Of a stretch of 64,000 nt of DNA, positions 40,273 through 48,906 are shown in pieces; within the stretch, counting starts at the first letter, position 1, and the number at the start of each line of letters is the position of its first letter. Made by a program: the position numbers and the translations under genes. Source of the DNA: an uncultured Phycisphaerales bacterium (GTDB lineage: Bacteria > Planctomycetota > Phycisphaerae > Tepidisphaerales > Tepidisphaeraceae); the NCBI GenBank assembly GCA_963755915.1, contig CAVWLP010000002.1:2912001-2976000 (forward strand). The letters run 5' to 3'. The notes beneath the pieces are model-generated. The model did not search any database. It had not been told where the DNA came from and saw only the letters and a list, made by a program, of their open reading frames with translations.

Positions 40273-40298
40273 GACTATTGATTAGGGACAATAACGAG

Positions 40299-40640
40299 AT
40301 GCTCGAGGTCCCCGAAAGCACCACCCTTGTGCAGCTTGCTCACAAACGCCTCCGCGTATGCGCGGAGCAGATTTCAGACTTCTGCCGGCGTTGGCAAATT
40401 GCAGAGCTGTCCCTTTTCGGTTCCATTCTCCGGGCCGATTTCACGGACCATAGCGATATCGATGTGATGGTGACCTTCCATCCGGGCGCCGCATGGAGTC
40501 TGATGGAATGGGTCCAAATGCGGGACGAGCTCCAGACCATGTTTAACCGGCGCGTCGACCTGGTCGAGAAGCGGGCGATACGCAATCCATTTCGCCGACA
40601 TTCCATTCTGAATTCCTCACACGTGATTTATGCCGCCTGA
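40299..40640 (+). CDS. Minimal nucleotidyltransferase (MNT/MntA-like antitoxin)
   Basis: LFGSILRADFTDHSDIDV (GSx10DxD), RRVDLV. Confidence 0.9.
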   Translation: MLEVPESTTLVQLAHKRLRVCAEQISDFCRRWQIAELSLFGSILRADFTDHSDIDVMVTFHPGAAWSLMEWVQMRDELQTMFNRRVDLVEKRAIRNPFRRHSILNSSHVIYAA

Positions 40641-40983
40641 AGATCGAGACCCCGCCTTGCTATGGGATATGCTCGAAGCCGCCCGCCAAATGTGCCAGTT
40701 TGCTGGCGACGTCACTCTCGAGCAATATCGAAACAACCTCATGCTTCGAAGGGCCGTGGAGAGGTCCATTGAGATCATCGGAGAGGCGGCACGAGGCGTA
40801 TCAAAGACCTTTAAGGCCTCTCATCCGCAGATACCCTGGCAGCCGATTATGTCTCAGCGCCATGTACTGGCGCACGAATATGGCGAAATCGACGACGAGC
40901 GGATTTGGCGCGTACTTACAATTCACGTTCCCGAGCTGATCCGCATGCTGGAGCCCTTGGTTCCGCCTGCGCCAGGACATTGA
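40630..40983 (+). CDS. HEPN (DUF86/HepT-like) RNase toxin
   Basis: AVERSIEIIGEAA, IPW, RHVLAHEY (Rx4HxY); overlaps MNT. Confidence 0.9.
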   Translation: MPPEDRDPALLWDMLEAARQMCQFAGDVTLEQYRNNLMLRRAVERSIEIIGEAARGVSKTFKASHPQIPWQPIMSQRHVLAHEYGEIDDERIWRVLTIHVPELIRMLEPLVPPAPGH

Positions 40984-41024: not shown

Positions 41025-42251
41025 ATGCCCCTGATCGTCCAAAAATTCGGCGGAACCAGTGTCGCGGACGCCCAGCGAATCCACCGCGCCGCCCAGCGCG
41101 CCATCGCCGCCAAGCAGCAGGGAAACCAGGTCTGCGTCGTCGTCTCCGCCATGGGCGACACCACCGACGATCTCATCCACCTCGCCACTCAGGTCTGCGA
41201 AAATCCCCCCAAACGCGAGATGGATCAGCTCCTCGCCACCGGCGAGCAGGTCACCATCGCCCTGATGGCCATGGCCATCTCACGCCCAGGGCCACGAGGC
41301 CATCAGCTTCACCGGCGGCCAGATCGGCCTCGTCACCGACAACGCCTTCAGCAAAGCCCGCATCCAATCCATCAACCAGAAACGCATTTTCGACCAGCTC
41401 GCCGCCGGAAAAATCGTCATCATCGCCGGCTTCCAGGGCGTCACCGCCGAGGGCGATTACACCACCCTCGGCCGCGGCGGGAGCAACGCCACCCTCGTCG
41501 CCATCGGCGCCGTCCTCAAGGCCGACGTCTGCGAAAACTACACCGACGTCGACGGAATCTTCACCGCCGACCCCCGCATCGTCCAAAACGCACGCAAGAT
41601 CGACCGCATCAGCTATGATGAAATGCTCGAGCTCTCCGGCCTCGGCGCCAGCGTCCTGCAGACCCGGGCGGTCGAGTTCGCCAAGAAATACAATGTTCCG
41701 CATTCACGTGCGAAACAGCCAGAACGACAAGCGAAGGAACGTGGATCGTCGCGGAGACCCAGAACATGGAACACATCGTCGTCTCCGGCGCCGCACTTAA
41801 AAAAGACCTCGTCCGCGTCACCATAAAAAACGTCCCCGACAAACCCGGCATCGCCGCCAAAATCTTCGGCGACATCGCCGCCGCCAACATCGTCGTCGAC
41901 GACATCATCCAGAACGTCATGGACGACAACACCGCCAACATCAGCTTCACCGTCGAGCACGGCGACCTGCACGAAATCAAGCCCGTCGTCGACCGCCTCG
42001 TCAAAGAGCTCGGCGGCAAAACCGCCCCGATCTACCACGACGGCCTCGCCAAAGTCAGCGCCGTCGGCGTCGGCATGAAAACCCACACCGGCGTCGCCCA
42101 GCGAATGTTCAAGGCCCTGGCCGACGGCAAGATCAACATCCAGAACATCACCACCAGCGAAATCAAGATCAGTTGCATCATCAGCAAAGAAGACGCCAAC
42201 CGCGCCCTGCAAATCGTCCACGACGCCTTCGACCTGGGAACCGCCCGCTAA
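41025..42251 (+). CDS. lysC: Aspartate kinase (about 3 indels near 41280, 41700, 41730)
   Basis: [41 protein letters not shown], two ACT domains. Confidence 0.95.
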
Positions 42252-42494: not shown

Positions 42495-42908
42495 TTAAGG
42501 ATGGTGTCGCGTGATATCGCTGAACTTGTCCAGATCAAGATCGAACGACGCCACCGCGTTACCTGTTTCAAACGCTGATGCCGCGAGGTAAGCATCCCCA
42601 AAGTCAACATTGGCCGCCTGTACCCGAGCCAGTGCGTCCACAATCCGCGACGGCTCCGAGAGATGAAACGCCGGCGTGTTCAGCAGGCCAGCCAGCGTCC
42701 GTGCCGCCCGACGCCGGTCGACATGATACGACGTTCGCAACGCATAAAATGCCTCCGCGACGGTCACCGCCGACACTTCCAAAATCACCGCTCCCCGGCT
42801 CGCCTGTTGAATGAGTTTTGCCGCACGCGGCGAAAAAACGGCGTGATCGTTGCGAAGGAACCGAATCAAAACATTCGCATCGACTTGATAAGTGGGAACC
42901 CCCGCCAT
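42495..42908 (-). CDS. PIN-domain (VapC-like) toxin
   Basis: VDANVLIRFL, AEAFY, DFGDAYL, SFDLDL. Confidence 0.88.
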   Translation of the reverse strand: MAGVPTYQVDANVLIRFLRNDHAVFSPRAAKLIQQASRGAVILEVSAVTVAEAFYALRTSYHVDRRRAARTLAGLLNTPAFHLSEPSRIVDALARVQAANVDFGDAYLAASAFETGNAVASFDLDLDKFSDITRHHP

Positions 42909-43168
42909 CTTATCGTTTCCCCGATGCGCGCTTTCCCATCAGCTTGCGCTCGTGATTTCTCGTCGGGATCATAAGCGCCCGGGCCCCCCAACGCGCCAAA
43001 GAGCGACATCACATCCTTCAGCGGCTGCATCGTAACCACACCCGTGCCCGTCATCGAGATACGGATTTTCCCCTTCGCTCCTAAGTTCATTGCCTTGCGG
43101 ATTTTGGGTGGAAGGGTTAGTTGTCCTTTCCCAGTGACTGCGACGTCCTTGTAAAAGCCTTGCGCCAT
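42866..43168 (-). CDS. AbrB/MazE-type antitoxin (true stop probably near 42910)
   Basis: VTGKGQLTLPPKIRKAMNL; directly upstream of the PIN gene. Confidence 0.85.
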   Translation of the reverse strand: MAQGFYKDVAVTGKGQLTLPPKIRKAMNLGAKGKIRISMTGTGVVTMQPLKDVMSLFGALGGPGAYDPDEKSRAQADGKARIGETIRWRGFPLIKSMRMF

Positions 43169-43401
43169 CAGCTTATTGTACAGCGTCAAATACCGCGGCC
43201 AAGCCCCGATCGAGCCACGCACAAAGAGATTCACCCCCTCTCTTGTCCCATAAGGTTAAAGTTATTCACCCACCCCTCCCGATGATTTGAGGGGATGCGC
43301 TGCGGTGCGCGGGCGAGCGAATGGGCAACGCGCACTTTTTTTCCGGGCCGACGGAACGGCTCGACTGACGCAGCCATCCAGGCAACCAAGGAAGGTCGGC
43401 C

Positions 43402-45000
43402 ATGCGAGCGATTGCCATCATCAACCAAAAGGGCGGCTGCGGTAAAACCACCACGAGCATCAACTTAGCGGCCTGTCTGGCCAGGCTTGGTCAAAAAACC
43501 TTGCTCGTCGACATGGACCCCCAGGGACACTGCGCCATCGGTCTGGCCGTCCCCGAAGAGCAGATCGAACGCACCATCTACGACTGCCTCATCGAAGAGC
43601 GCGACGGCAAACCCGTCCGCCTCCAGGAGATCGTCTGGCAGATCGCCACCGATTTCGACCTCGCTCCCGCCAACATCAAGCTTGCCGCTTTCGAGCAAAC
43701 CTTCTCCGGCCGCCTCGGACGCGAAGACCGCCTCCGCAAAGCCATTGAATCCATCAAGCAGAATTACAAGTGGTGCATCATCGACTGCCCCCCAAGCGTC
43801 GGCCTGATCACCTTCAACGCCCTCCGCGCCTGCGACGAAGTCATCGTCCCCGTCGAAACCGGCTATTTCAGCCTTCACGGCCTCGCGAAAATGATGGAAA
43901 CCCTCGAGCTCCTCCGCGACAAGTGCGACAAGGAAATCCTCATCCGAGTGCTGCCAACTCTCTACGACACCCGCACCAAGCTCGCCCGCGAGGTTCTTTC
44001 CGAGCTCCGCAACAAGTTCCGCGAATACCTCATGGAAAGCACCGTCAACTTCAACACCAAGCTCAAGGAAGCCGCCAGCTTCGGCCAGCCCATCACCGAA
44101 TACGATCCCGGCAGCCGCGGCTACAAGGATTTCGTCAACCTTGCCCGCGAGCTCATGGGCCATATCCCGATGGATGTCGAGCCCACCCCCATGGACAAAC
44201 TCTCCCGCCCCGCGGAGCTCGTCCAGCGCGCCAAGCAATTGGCCCAGCTCACGACTCTCCAGTTCGGCCGCAACGCGATCCCCGCCGCCCCCCCAGCCCT
44301 CTCGCAGACCTCCGCGCCGGCACCCGCACCCGCGCCGCAGCCCGAACCGGCGCCCGTGGAAGCAATCTCCGTCGCTCCCGCCATATCCAGCAGCGGCTCT
44401 GTCGCTCTCTCCATTCCCCGCACTCAACTCCAATTAACCGGCCGTTTGGCCGAGCAACCCGTCGCTCAGGCGGTTTCCGTCCCCATGGCCCTCTCCTCTA
44501 TTGACGAGGAAATCGCCGACTCCAGCCAGGCGACCTATCCCCGCGCCGTTGCCCAAACCCCAACTTTAACCCCTCCCAAGCCCCCCTCAGGAAACGGCAA
44601 CGGAAACGCCCCCAGCAACGGCAACGGAAGCCCAAAATTCAGCCCCGGCCCCAGCGCCGCTGGCAACGGCAACAGCCCCCCCCAGCCCCTCAAATCCACC
44701 GCCCAAAAAATCGACGAATTCTACGGCGTGAAAAAAATCGGTGACGAAGTCATCTTCGCCGCCCGTTTCGACCGCGCCAAAAAAGTCCTCATCGCCGGCG
44801 ATTTCAACAACTGGTCCCCAATGTCCACGCCCATGATCAATCGTGGCCGGCCAGGTGAGTTTTATACCTCCCTGCCTCTCCCGCCCGGACGATATCGCTA
44901 TCGCTTTGTCGTCGATGGGAAATGGATGACCGATCCAAACAACAAGTACGTTGAGGTCAATCAGTTCGGAGAACTGAACAACGTGATCGAAGTCGAATGA
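43402..45000 (+). CDS. ParA/Soj family ATPase fused via a Pro/Ala/Asn-rich linker to a CBM48/AMPK-beta glycogen-binding domain
   Basis: NQKGGCGKTT, LVDMDPQGH, IIDCPPS; C-terminal VLIAGDFNNW...LPPGRYRYRFVVDGKWMTDPNN...FGELNNVI; single unbroken frame. Confidence 0.92.
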   Translation: MRAIAIINQKGGCGKTTTSINLAACLARLGQKTLLVDMDPQGHCAIGLAVPEEQIERTIYDCLIEERDGKPVRLQEIVWQIATDFDLAPANIKLAAFEQTFSGRLGREDRLRKAIESIKQNYKWCIIDCPPSVGLITFNALRACDEVIVPVETGYFSLHGLAKMMETLELLRDKCDKEILIRVLPTLYDTRTKLAREVLSELRNKFREYLMESTVNFNTKLKEAASFGQPITEYDPGSRGYKDFVNLARELMGHIPMDVEPTPMDKLSRPAELVQRAKQLAQLTTLQFGRNAIPAAPPALSQTSAPAPAPAPQPEPAPVEAISVAPAISSSGSVALSIPRTQLQLTGRLAEQPVAQAVSVPMALSSIDEEIADSSQATYPRAVAQTPTLTPPKPPSGNGNGNAPSNGNGSPKFSPGPSAAGNGNSPPQPLKSTAQKIDEFYGVKKIGDEVIFAARFDRAKKVLIAGDFNNWSPMSTPMINRGRPGEFYTSLPLPPGRYRYRFVVDGKWMTDPNNKYVEVNQFGELNNVIEVE

Positions 45001-45025
45001 ACCGTGAAGTGAATTGGGGCATCCC

Positions 45026-46438
45026 ATGGACCCAAAGCGACCTCTCAGCGAAATCAGCCATCTTTTCCTGAGCGAAATCCGCGCCCGTCCCGGCTCACCC
45101 GGACGCCCCGCCCGGATTCCACCTCCCAAATCCACCGACGTCAGCGTCGACATGACCCCCGAAGAATTCTGCGCCTCGATCGAAGCCGCTTCTGACGATT
45201 CCGTCGAAACCCCGGCCGAGCCCTCCGTCGCGATGAACTATCCCGTCCGGCCCCCGGCCATTTCCATCGTTCTCTCCTCCCACCTGATGGAACACCCGTC
45301 CCAAAGCGTCCGTCAATACGCACGCTCCCTTGCCGCCGAATCGAAAAATGTCGGCCTCATCGAACTCGAAGGCGGCGAGCTTTACCTCACCACCTTTGAA
45401 ATCAACGGCGTCCAGGCCCCCTCGCCCGCCGTCGTCGAATCGATGGACCCGCGCCGAATCTCCGAAATTCTCACCGAAATGGCCGTCGACGTCGAACGAT
45501 GGATCATCTCCCTCCCCAACGCCCGAACCACCGAAGCCCGCGAGCTTCTCCGCGAAGCCCCCCACTGGGTGATGCTCACCACCGCCGACCACGAAGGCGT
45601 CGTCGCCACCTATCGCGCCCTCAAGGGCCTCACCGAACTCGGCCGGCATCGAATCTCCCTCGTTGTCCTCGACGCCCGCGACGATTCCCACGCCCAGGCC
45701 GTCTATCGCAAGCTCGACGCCGTCAGCCGACAGTTCCTCCACTGCGCCCTCGAAGCGGTTTCCCCCCTTCGCCAGGCGCAAAACGTCGCCGAGCAGGCCA
45801 TCCTCCAATGCGGCCGCACCGGCGACACCGCCGCTTCATCCGATCACTGGAACGTCATCCGCCAGTTCGCCGCCGGCGCTGTCGCGCCTCATGAGAAAAC
45901 AATTCGCGAAGAAAAATCCGCACACTCAACTTACCAAGAGCAACCCAAACCCATGAAACTCAACACCCCCGAAGCCCCTCGGATCTCCGTCGTGGACGAT
46001 TCTCTCCCCGAAGTCATCGACCTTCCCGCCGACGCCTCCGACCGCGCCATTCTCGACGCCGTCGTCCGGCAGGGGGGCGCCGACGGCCGCTGGGTCCTCT
46101 GCCCCATCCACCCGCCAATGTGCCCCGAAGCTCTCCTCGCCGTCGGACGCGACCAGCGCCTCATGCTCCTCGCCGTCGCCGGCCGCGGACTCGGCCAGCT
46201 CCTCTCCATCGGCCAGGCCCTCCGCTGGATGTCCGAGAACACCGAACTAATCCGCATGGCCCTCCCCCAACTCGCCATCGACGCCTCCGCCGCCCCCTGC
46301 GTGCGCGTCCTCGTCGATCACAACGACCTCAGCGCCGACGTCCTCCAACCGCTTCTCCAAAGCGGCACCGTCACCATCCAGGCCTACCGCCGCATCAAAT
46401 GGGCCGGCAAAACCGGACTATTGCTCGAAGCCGCATAG
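45026..46438 (+). CDS. Hypothetical protein with Walker-A-less MinD/FlhG-like domain and degenerate nuclease-like C-terminal domain
   Basis: ISHLFLS N-terminus; VMLTTADHEGVVATYRALK...ISLVV...AQAVYRKLDAVSRQFL resembles the FlhG C-terminal half; 25 nt after the parA stop. Confidence 0.65.
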   Translation: MDPKRPLSEISHLFLSEIRARPGSPGRPARIPPPKSTDVSVDMTPEEFCASIEAASDDSVETPAEPSVAMNYPVRPPAISIVLSSHLMEHPSQSVRQYARSLAAESKNVGLIELEGGELYLTTFEINGVQAPSPAVVESMDPRRISEILTEMAVDVERWIISLPNARTTEARELLREAPHWVMLTTADHEGVVATYRALKGLTELGRHRISLVVLDARDDSHAQAVYRKLDAVSRQFLHCALEAVSPLRQAQNVAEQAILQCGRTGDTAASSDHWNVIRQFAAGAVAPHEKTIREEKSAHSTYQEQPKPMKLNTPEAPRISVVDDSLPEVIDLPADASDRAILDAVVRQGGADGRWVLCPIHPPMCPEALLAVGRDQRLMLLAVAGRGLGQLLSIGQALRWMSENTELIRMALPQLAIDASAAPCVRVLVDHNDLSADVLQPLLQSGTVTIQAYRRIKWAGKTGLLLEAA

Positions 46439-46532: not shown

Positions 46533-48906
46533 TTATTTCGTCGCAGCCGGTGCATCGCGCATTGCCGGCATCGATTCCGCGGTACTAATCGTAAACGTCA
46601 TGTCTTCGCTTACATCCGTCCACTGCATCAACAACCCCTCCGGCAAATACCCCATCATTTTCCCATTCCCGATCTGCGACGCCGACGGAATCGACCGCAG
46701 CAAAACCCGCACGTTCCGCGCCCGCCCATCCCCGCTGAGCATGATCTGCTGCCCCGAGCGCCGGCACTGAATCTTCGCCGTGCTTTCTCCATCCGATGCG
46801 ACAAGTCGCAACGAAATCTCCGCCCCATCCGCAATCTGAAAAAGCTGCAACGTCAGTTCATCCTCCAGCAGCCAGGAAGGATTCCGCTTCTCGCTGGCAA
46901 CCGGGACAATCGAATTCTCCCTCACGATCAGCGGAATATGGAGAAAATCCACCTTCTCCGAAACCCATCGCCCGCCAACGATCACCCGCCCGCTCAAAAA
47001 ATTCGTCCACTTTCCCTTCGGCAGGTAATACTCCACCGTGTTATCCATCCGGAAAACCGGCGCCACCAGCAGCGACGACCCCAGCATATATTGCCGATCC
47101 AGATACGGCACCGCCGGATCCTCCGGAAATTCCAGCACCATCGCCCGCATCACCGGCCAACCAAATTCCCCCGCATCCTTCGCCGCCGCGAACAAATACG
47201 GAAAAAGCTGGTTCTTCAATTCCGCAAAGTGCCGCACCACCTGTACCGATTCCTCGTCAAACAGCCATGGCACCCGGTACGACGTCGACCCGTGCAACCG
47301 GCTGTGCGTGCTCAATAATCCAAACGCCGCCCACCGCTTGTAAACCGCCGGATTCGCCGTCCCCGAAAATCCCCCAATGTCATGGCTCCAGAACGCCGGC
47401 CCCGACATACAAAAGCTCAATCCCCCGCGCAAGCTCTCCGCCATCGATTCAAACGTCGCCTCATTATCCCCGCCCCAGTGCACCGGAAATTTCTGGCTCC
47501 CGATCGCCCCGGCCCGTGCGAACACCACGGCATTATTTTTCCCATGATGCTTCTCAAGCAGCTCGAACACCGCCTTGTTGTACAGATAGCTAAAATGATT
47601 GTGCATCAAATGCGGATCGCCCCCGTTGTGATACACCACGTCTTCCGGAATGAATTCCCCAAAATCCGTCTTGAAAGAATCAACCCCCATTTCCAGCAGA
47701 TTCCGAAGCTTCGACTGATACCACTCCACCGCCTTCGGATTGGTGAAATCCACCAGCCCCATCCCCGGCTGCCAGGCATCGCGCTGGAACACGCTCCCAT
47801 CCGCCCGCTTCAGCAGATACCCCTCCCGCGCCGCCTCCGCGAAAAGCTCCGAAAGCTGCGAAATATACGGATTGATCCACACGCAAATATGCAGCCCGCG
47901 CTCCTTCAGTCGCTTCAGCATCCCCCGCGGATCCGGAAACGCCTCCTCATCCCACTGAAAATTGCACCAGTGCCGCTCCTTCATCCAGAAGCAGTCGAAA
48001 TGAAATACGCTCAGCGGAATCTGCCGCTGCGCCATCCCCTCCACGAATTCCGTGACGGTCGCTTCGTCATATTTCGTCGTAAACGACGTGCTCAGCCAAA
48101 GCCCCCACGACCACGCCGGCGGTAGGGGGGCGCCCCGTCAGCCGCGTATACTTCTCCAGAACTTCCTTCGGCCCCGGTCCCCGAAAGACATAATAATCCA
48201 GCTCTTCCCCGCCCACGCTGAACTGAACCTGCGACACCCGTTCCGTCGCGATATCAAAATCCACCCGCCCCGTAGAATTCACCAGGATGCCATATCCCCG
48301 GTTCGAAAGCACAAACGGAATATTCTTATACGCCAGCTCGCTCCCCGTCCCCCCGTCCTCATTCCAGATCGAAACGCTCTGTCCATTCTTCACCAGCGGC
48401 CCAAACCGCTCGCCGAGCCCATACAAACATTCCCCCACCCCCAGCCGCAGCCGCTGCATCATCCAATGCTCGCCGCGCTGGCTCGTCATCTGCCCCAGGC
48501 TCTCGCGCTCCCCGCCGCTGATTACCGTTCCCCCATCCTCAAACTGCATCGACCAGCGGTTCTTATTCACCCGCAGCGAAAGCCGCCCGCTCGTAAACAC
48601 CAGCTCATCATCCCGGTCTTCAATCTTCACCCCACTCGCCGCCAGCGAATAATCCAGGTCCGCCTTCACCGTCCGCCGCGCATCGGGCATGTGATGCACA
48701 ATCCTCACCCGGATCACATCCGCCATCGGCGAGCTGATCTGCAACTGAAGAACCAGCCCCTCAAACCGATCAACCGCATCGATATCATCCCGATCCACCG
48801 CCGCGATCCATAGCGAATCCCTCGAAACGCGGTACTCCGTCACCCGCCGCACGCAAAACGGCGTAATCCCTTCAGCCCACTTCCATACACCATGGCTGAA
48901 CTTCAT
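46533..48906 (-). CDS. yicI: GH31 alpha-xylosidase (YicI-like), frameshift near 48120
   Basis: MKFSHGVW, YGLGERF, LAYKNIPF, VFHFDCFWM, FKTDFGE, HWGGD, FWSHDIGGF, HSRLHGS. Confidence 0.92.

Follow-up and report, generated by a model that had tools for sequence, protein, structure and literature searches.

A ParA ATPase fused to an AMPK-beta-type CBM48 module, with a predicted pseudo-ATPase partner, in Phycisphaerae: a candidate system for coupling cytoplasmic alpha-glucan to the nucleoid

We describe a pair of genes in a 64,000-nucleotide stretch of DNA (the window) from an uncultured Phycisphaerales bacterium (GenBank assembly GCA_963755915.1, contig CAVWLP010000002.1; C2:2912001-2976000 of a three-contig, 6.63-Mb genome with an estimated completeness of 81%). 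The first gene (43402..45000, plus strand) encodes a ParA ATPase joined through a linker to an AMPK-beta/CBM48 carbohydrate-binding module (CBM), and we refer to its product as the fusion. The second gene (45026..46438, plus strand) encodes a protein of 470 amino acids that we refer to as the partner. We propose, with a probability of roughly 0.4, that the two genes form a ParA/MinD cargo-positioning module in which an accessory ParA couples cytoplasmic alpha-glucan to the nucleoid, with the coupling gated by ATP and cycled by the partner.

In this proposal, the Soj-type ParA domain would dimerize with ATP and then bind nucleoid DNA non-specifically, and the C-terminal AMPK-beta-type CBM48 would bind cytoplasmic alpha-glucan in the form of glycogen-like particles or dextrins. 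This would attach glucan particles to the nucleoid in a manner that depends on ATP, and each daughter cell would receive a share of them. The cargo adaptor would be part of the ATPase polypeptide. Regulation of the ATPase cycle would fall to the partner, with a conserved N-terminal peptide as the probable point of contact with ParA. A more ambitious form of the proposal is that this is the first ATP-driven segregation of a polysaccharide storage particle, carried out in most Phycisphaerae, with their FtsZ-less division, by a ParA on the nucleoid that has a built-in CBM48 and is cycled by a pseudo-MinD; we regard that form as doubtful. To our knowledge, Phycisphaerae divide without FtsZ. An earlier note on this DNA had placed the gene pair in a lineage that lacks FtsZ, and the FtsZ model TIGR00065 was indeed not found in the window's genome, at its estimated completeness of 81%, in a search whose control was positive in 13 of 14 known genomes.

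The fusion gene is a single unbroken open reading frame (ORF) of 532 codons plus a TGA stop, as the earlier note had read it, and each motif quoted there is present in the protein: KGGCGKT at residues 10-16, IIDCPP at 126-131, DTRT at 189-192, AGDFNNW at 465-471 and YRFVVDGKWMTDP at 500-512. A check of both domains with hidden Markov models placed each above its curated Pfam cut-off. At the N terminus, AAA_31 matches residues 1-179 (E 9.4e-52, 175.9 bits versus a cut-off of 27) and CbiA matches residues 4-231 (69.5 bits versus 25.4). At the C terminus, AMPK1_CBM (PF16561) matches residues 459-532 (E 1.9e-17, 63.7 bits versus 26.8), overlapping a match of CBM_48 (PF02922) to residues 442-512 (25.2 bits versus 22.4). 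Matches to the ParA, MinD and RepA models of NCBIfam were all below threshold, with the ParA_partition equivalog at 107 bits, under its cut-off of 180. The ParA match extends to about residue 258 and the CBM begins at about residue 442-459, leaving ~185-200 amino acids between them, in agreement with the linker of ~190 amino acids estimated before.

The ATPase half looks functional, as judged from its alignment to ParA/Soj structures and from the invariant columns of an alignment of 29 fusion-family members (A2). The Soj-type domain occupies residues 1-258 (43402..44175, plus strand). Residues 2-252 align with Myxococcus xanthus ParA (8RAY, E 1.7e-54) and Thermus Soj (1WCV, E 3.6e-44), and across the ParA/Soj structures, including Helicobacter pylori Soj (6IUB), the alignment extends to residue 255 with E values of 1.7e-54 to 3e-40. 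The deviant Walker A motif, K10-G-G-C-G-K15-T-T with its signature lysine, is invariant in the 29 sequences and aligns with the motif of 8RAY and 1WCV. The switch residues D37 and D39 and the Walker B residue D128 are likewise invariant and aligned with the Soj structures.

The fusion may also bind DNA. According to the available part of PMC6393308, the DNA-binding patch of Soj comprises R182, R194, R208 and R211 in the Thermus protein (TtSoj), equivalent to R189, K201, R215 and R218 in the Bacillus subtilis protein (BsSoj), of which R189 and R218 were validated by mutagenesis. The equivalents in the fusion, from alignment to Soj structures, are R191, R203, F217 and K220, so that three of the four are basic. 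Both positions validated by mutagenesis are among these three (R191 corresponds to TtSoj R182 and BsSoj R189, and K220 to TtSoj R211 and BsSoj R218), and the R203 position is lysine or arginine throughout the family. Behind the ATPase domain, a helix-like segment, LSRPAELVQRAKQLAQLT (residues 266-285, 44197..44256, plus strand), is kept in most rows of A2, including four distant rows of Phycisphaeraceae type.

The segment between the two domains is not conserved. It is a low-complexity linker rich in proline, alanine, glycine and asparagine (residues ~286-435, 44257..44706, plus strand) that corresponds to gapped, unconserved columns of A2. Its length differs among relatives, and the spacing between ParA and CBM is only ~22-30 amino acids in families f101 and f107 (for example, in genomes G310, G325 and G302). 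Conservation resumes with the segment KSTAQKIDEFYGVK, which is followed by the AMPK-beta-type CBM48 (together residues 436-532, 44707..44997, plus strand), as defined by PF16561 and by structure alignments.

The CBM half looks functional as well. The best relatives of residues 458-531 are the CBM structures of AMPK beta (4Y0G, 1Z0M and 1Z0N, E 2e-13 to 3e-12), and the module was also aligned to the AMPK beta CBM 2F15; overall, its best matches are the glycogen-binding CBMs of AMPK beta and the CBMs of starch phosphatases. W471, R501, W508 and N526 of the fusion correspond to W100, K126, W133 and N150 of AMPK beta1, with K126 replaced by arginine in every member. The first three are invariant in A2 and in a further alignment (A3), and N526 is invariant in A3 and conserved at 90% or more in A2. 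N150 is, we take it, a carbohydrate-contact residue. In the available part of PMC6274970, the W100G and K126Q changes in AMPK beta1 abolish glycogen binding and changes of W133 weaken it. All four equivalents are also retained in four genomes that yielded no glycogen synthase (G093, G206, G222 and G254; see below). These features suggest that the module binds glucan.

AMPK1_CBM occurs on other proteins of the phylum. Among seven CBM-bearing ORFs that we examined outside the class Phycisphaerae, one was a ParA-CBM fusion (in G094), two had GGDEF domains, two were terpene-cyclase-like, one was a subtilase and one consisted of the CBM only. The domain is reused widely in other Planctomycetota (loci L205, L206, L208, L212 and L213), on diguanylate-cyclase-type GGDEF proteins, terpene-cyclase-like repeat proteins and a subtilase, and there are many stand-alone AMPK1_CBM ORFs of ~95-160 amino acids in genomes of the class. 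Because the domain also sits on GGDEF-domain proteins, this distribution suggests that cytoplasmic glucan could be a common targeting or sensing ligand in the phylum.

The partner gene follows closely. The stop codon of the fusion gene (TGA, 44998-45000) and the ATG of the partner gene at 45026 are separated by 25 nucleotides (45001..45025), as the earlier note had counted, and in this gap a simple scan of the plus strand detected nothing resembling a terminator. We suspect that the two genes are co-transcribed, the basis being the short gap and the conserved adjacency. The partner is present in a public protein collection with the same length of 470 amino acids and the same start (P0121). It has no family match in Pfam, NCBIfam or PADLOC. 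Its own family is large, with 1017 representatives at E <= 0.001 in a library clustered at 50%. From an alignment of 33 partners (A1), which also gave the profile that we used to find partners in other genomes, we recognize three conserved parts.

The first part is an N-terminal peptide (residues 1-33, 45026..45124, plus strand) defined by invariant positions in A1. Its consensus is K-R-x-L-S-E-I-S-H-L-F-L-S, xxR, then RPxRxPP, and L7, S8, E9, H12, L13, F14, L15, R19, P28, R30 and P33 are invariant in all 33 sequences. Distant homologues retain its amphipathic pattern. By analogy with ParB, as described in the available part of PMC12462528, this peptide is a candidate for the contact with ParA.

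The second part is a core with a MinD/FlhG-like fold that lacks a P-loop (residues ~79-260, 45260..45805, plus strand). With hhalign, A1 aligned to an FlhG/MinD-like protein of a sister genome with a probability of 95.6% (E 1.2e-8, 164 columns, partner residues 94-256 to residues 55-250). The match of the core to the FlhG structure 4RZ3 was weak (E 0.74), and structural rows of the Atlas, obtained via the homologue P0154, related it to FlhG/MinD with template-modeling (TM) scores of 0.42-0.51, depending on the row. In 12 genomes, the partner profile additionally picks up ORFs of ~300 amino acids that are FlhG/MinD-like, and one of these ORFs shows the motif GKGGVGKS. None of the 33 aligned partners has a GKGGxGK[ST] motif; the corresponding segment is VLSSHL, in which H86 and L87 are invariant. 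Because the P-loop is missing, the core is a predicted pseudo-ATPase. We also considered that the partner might be related to the ParA domain of the fusion itself, and we rejected this on the basis of hhalign (probability 0.45%); the kinship of the partner is with MinD/FlhG.

The third part is a C-terminal domain (residues 333-470, 46022..46435, plus strand) recognized from conservation in A1. In the Atlas model of P0154, residues 360-496 resemble clusters that consist in part of NucS_C, DUF5655 and SduA_C proteins (TM scores by query of 0.58-0.74), and the domain possibly has a PD-(D/E)xK nuclease-like fold. This is only a lead, because both of the structures compared are predicted models. 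No catalytic triad is conserved in the domain, either in A1 or in distant homologues.

The fusion is widespread in the class and the gene pair is conserved. In a collection of 5.8 billion proteins, all 120 homologues among the matches listed carry both ParA and PF16561 (58-100% identity), and the closest loci in public genomes come from Tepidisphaeraceae, Tepidisphaerales or Phycisphaerae, all of them Planctomycetota. We sampled 41 genomes of Phycisphaerae, including that of the window, and found a fusion-type ParA in 31. ParA and CBM are in one frame on one contig in 30 of these; in the other (G311), they lie at the ends of two contigs. Ten of the 41 genomes yielded no fusion (all five of family f100, both of f108 and three of the four of f103).

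The pairing that the earlier note had seen in a single locus holds more generally. Of 80 related loci, 69 have an ORF that matches the partner profile directly downstream of the fusion gene and in the same orientation. In seven of the 11 loci without a match, the sequence ends less than 300 nucleotides downstream, and an additional locus (L076) has an ORF that is similar to the partner by eye. In the 41-genome sample, a profile match was beside the fusion in 13 of the 31 fusion genomes. Because the partner family diverges fast, we take the remainder as partners not found with a query built from Tepidisphaerales rather than as absences. One locus (L019) is a 3.9-kb contig binned as Bacillota that has a fusion (59% identity) and a partner; in all likelihood, this is planctomycete DNA that was binned wrongly. 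We considered a role in defense and dropped it, given that PADLOC gave weak P-loop matches for the fusion and none for the partner, and that the pair is conserved class-wide.

The earlier note had named glycogen granules as the cargo, and this was not supported as stated. The window's genome has a GT3 (glycosyltransferase family 3, eukaryote-type) glycogen synthase, split by a frameshift (C2:1180889-1182641), as well as the glycogen phosphorylase GlgP, two GH13-CBM48 enzymes and one GH57 enzyme (glycoside hydrolase families 13 and 57); no GT5 GlgA was found in it at the estimated completeness of 81%. Across the 41 genomes, GT5 GlgA and GT4 GlgA of the Corynebacterium type (over cut-off) were found in none, GlgE in one, GT3 synthase (PF05693) in 20, the GT35 phosphorylase in 33 and GH57 in 38.

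Several observations weigh against a glucan cargo, or against the proposal as a whole. None of the four synthase families (GT5, GT3, GT4 of the Corynebacterium type and GlgE) was found in 18 of the 31 fusion genomes, whose completeness is 83-99%, and GT3 is present in 13 of the 31 genomes with the fusion versus seven of the ten without it. These counts carry no statistical test, because the genomes are related. GlgB was found over cut-off in only five of the 41 genomes, the search of the window's genome (again at 81%) gave no GlgC, and ORF clustering over the 80 loci found no glycogen gene among the conserved neighbors of the pair. In the ATPase half, the DNA-patch position of TtSoj R208 is phenylalanine (F217) in the fusion. 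Lastly, no glucan-binding part is recognizable in the partner with Pfam or NCBIfam. A diffusion ratchet requires an activator located on the cargo. Since the partner has no such part, a cargo-located activator is not evident, and ATP-gated tethering, or hitch-hiking on the nucleoid, would be as likely as active spacing. The geometry could differ if the C-terminal domain of the partner binds DNA.

We have lowered the claim of a glycogen cargo because 18 of the 31 fusion genomes match no synthase family and because there is no positive co-occurrence with synthases; the frequency of the fusion in such genomes goes part of the way toward refuting it. All 18 of these genomes have GH57 and 15 have the GT35 alpha-glucan phosphorylase, and for this reason they may contain a synthase that is not recognized by the four families. 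The neighborhoods of GT35 genes in two genomes contained no synthase. Phycisphaerae appear to use the GT3 synthase, which adjoins a GlgB-type GH13 gene in four genomes (G311, G041, G068 and G319). In one complete genome (G001), a GT3 synthase, a second ParA, the fusion and the partner lie together within ~17 kb (C1:1640703-1658151); G041, G068 and the window's genome showed no such linkage of the four genes.

One alternative, which we consider unlikely on balance, is that the fusion senses glucan or is anchored to it but moves a different cargo, of which the simplest candidate is an assembly of the partner. The CBM would then read the state of carbon storage, as in AMPK, and tune the positioning of, for example, a landmark related to division or the envelope. 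The missing positive co-occurrence with glycogen synthases fits this idea, and so does the partner, which is large, has three conserved parts and travels with the fusion in the manner of cargo proteins such as PomX/PomY or ParB. The presence of AMPK1_CBM on GGDEF-domain proteins in other Planctomycetota looks like sensing rather than transport, and the failure to find FtsZ in the window's genome would be in keeping with a different division landmark. However, the ten genomes in which the fusion was not found indicate that it is not a core division factor of the class, and no division or envelope gene is tied to the partner. The conserved neighbors in the 80 loci are a Polysacc_synt_2 gene, directly upstream of the fusion gene in 32, and a gene for a beta-lactamase-fold protein (Lactamase_B_2) in 15; the rest are unnamed ORFs.

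A second alternative is that the ligand of the CBM48-like module is not a storage glucan, and that the cargo is then something else. The ligand could be a different glycan of the cytoplasm, a protein with or without glycosylation, or a nucleotide-sugar polymer. This, too, strikes us as improbable, although it would explain why the ligand residues are invariant in the four synthase-less genomes that we examined, and the replacement of AMPK beta1 K126 by arginine in every member could reflect such a change of ligand. Polysacc_synt_2 is a sugar-nucleotide dehydratase family, and its position upstream of the fusion gene points in the same direction; the 32 loci are not independent, because they are closely related. 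On the other hand, the nearest matches of the module are the CBMs of AMPK beta and starch phosphatases, both platform tryptophans and the asparagine are kept, and the GH57 and GT35 enzymes of the synthase-less genomes indicate that alpha-glucans are probably handled there.

The relation of the fusion to chromosomal ParA and ParB bears on both its accessory role and the weakest alternative. Another Soj-like ParA is present in all 41 genomes and ParB in 40. The earlier note had seen no parB beside the fusion gene, and this is borne out at the scale of the genome: the only strong ParB of the window's genome (C2:1030621-1031634) is ~1.9 Mb from the fusion (C2:2955402). In family f101 (G302, G325 and G331), the non-fusion ParA is encoded directly beside parB; elsewhere, ParB adjoins neither ParA. 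The parA-parB pair is thus kept in f101 only, and most sampled Phycisphaerae, including the window's genome, have an orphan parB.

For a maximum-likelihood tree, we used 61 ParA domains (21 of fusion type, 30 second ParAs, three adjacent to parB and seven others), drawn from 81 ParA matches with one long-branch row left out. Fusions and second ParAs form separate clades, both with an ultrafast bootstrap of 100 and with 96-97 in the SH-like approximate likelihood-ratio test. In a quick tree, both groups of ParA join the same pairs of genomes (for example, G310-G318, G303-G326 and G041-G068), as might be expected if the two paralogues arose by an old duplication and then descended vertically. 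We read the fusion as an accessory ParA, distinct from the universal Soj-like paralogue, because that second ParA is universal, the two clades are separate, the parB of f101 adjoins the non-fusion ParA and the fusion has a partner of its own. The quick tree also contains a "long" ParA (in G117, G317 and G330), which is sister to the fusion clade and has 630-725 amino acids, a Walker A motif of KGGTGKT or KGGTAKT and a long acidic or proline-rich tail (L186 3220-5397, minus strand; L188 1960-3858, plus strand). We dropped it as a form of the same system: it has no CBM, and the ORFs downstream of it in G317 and G117 do not match the partner profile.

These data leave little room for the possibility that the fusion is the ParA of chromosome segregation, working with ParB and parS, to which a glycogen-binding tail was simply added. 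In its favor, the fusion's ATPase half resembles chromosomal ParA structures no less than the second paralogue does: against 8RAY, the fusion scores 186-188 bits (251 residues) and a second ParA that is truncated at its N terminus scores 165 bits. ParB is an orphan in most genomes of the class, and in the window's genome it has, at its N terminus, a canonical ParA-binding motif of the KPRLGRGLSSLI type that could serve either ParA. However, the ten genomes without a detected fusion have only the other Soj-like ParA, together with ParB; the paralogues form separate and well-supported clades; it is the non-fusion ParA that adjoins parB in f101; and the N-terminal peptide of the fusion's dedicated partner is unlike the ParB motif. 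In this view, ParB would act on the second ParA.

Both genes of the pair are intact in this assembly. Several other genes in the window and elsewhere are split between reading frames: in the window, an aspartokinase gene (41025-42251, plus strand) and a gene for a GH31 glycosidase (46533-48906, minus strand), and elsewhere the genes for GlgP, the GT3 glycogen synthase and the second ParA (C3:55072-58156, C2:1180889-1182641 and C2:1503616-1504525). A multitude of pseudogenes seems less likely here than the indel noise of a long-read assembly, and such noise may explain the low completeness estimate of 81%. Upstream of the fusion gene, two toxin-antitoxin-like pairs flank the aspartokinase gene (40278-40983, plus strand, and 42495-43234, minus strand); they are an MntA-like nucleotidyltransferase with a HepT-like RNase, and a PIN-domain protein with a weakly MazE/AbrB-like neighbor.

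What distinguishes this system is that most of a bacterial class keeps a ParA with an adaptor-like, glycogen-binding-type module in the same polypeptide, next to a partner that descends from an inactive MinD/FlhG. Should storage glucan be the ligand of the module, then active positioning would extend to polysaccharide granules, and the fusion would offer a design for ATP-gated tethering that is simple and can be tested. Otherwise, the invariant sugar-binding residues in synthase-less genomes would point to an unrecognized cytoplasmic glycan, or an unrecognized synthase, in Planctomycetota. Either way, the pair is a tractable entry to the poorly known cell biology of the FtsZ-less Phycisphaerae.

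ParA/MinD ATPases position chromosomes, plasmids, carboxysomes, chemoreceptor arrays and division landmarks. In the ParA/MinD systems that we know of, a separate adaptor protein joins the ATPase to the cargo. The earlier note knew of no characterized system like the fusion, and the full-text literature that we searched, in which subscription journals are mostly outside coverage, likewise yielded neither a ParA-CBM48 fusion nor ParA-driven positioning of glycogen. Like chromosomal Soj/ParA (8RAY, 1WCV/2BEK and 6IUB), the fusion has a Soj-sized ATPase with no N-terminal extension and a deviant Walker A motif. It differs in having the linker and the CBM48, a neighbor that is not ParB, a second paralogue in the same genome and a parB that is not adjacent.

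Several other systems share parts of this arrangement. As in McdA-McdB and other orphan ParA systems, an accessory ParA lies beside a dedicated partner that belongs to no wider family, and the presumed logic is that of McdA-McdB, with the nucleoid as matrix and a cargo other than DNA. The fusion is not of the McdA family, to which it is only weakly similar (42.8 bits to 6NOO over residues 1-170, versus 152-186 bits to Soj/ParA). In contrast to McdAB, the presumed cargo-binding module is within the ATPase, and the partner is a 470-amino-acid protein of pseudo-MinD/FlhG type, whereas McdB is a small disordered protein. Compared with MinD/FlhG (4RZ3), the partner has a homologous core but no P-loop, and it has an N-terminal peptide and a C-terminal domain in addition. 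The CBM48 of AMPK/SNF1 beta (1Z0M, 1Z0N, 4Y0G and 2F15) has its W100, W133 and N150 equivalents kept in the fusion and K126 conservatively replaced by arginine, but here the module, with its predicted ligand binding, is fused to a bacterial ParA rather than being part of a kinase scaffold subunit. PhaM tethers storage granules of polyhydroxybutyrate to the nucleoid and is not an ATPase. PhaM and the fusion are unrelated in sequence and would share the idea of granule inheritance through attachment to the nucleoid, with the attachment in the fusion being gated by ATP.

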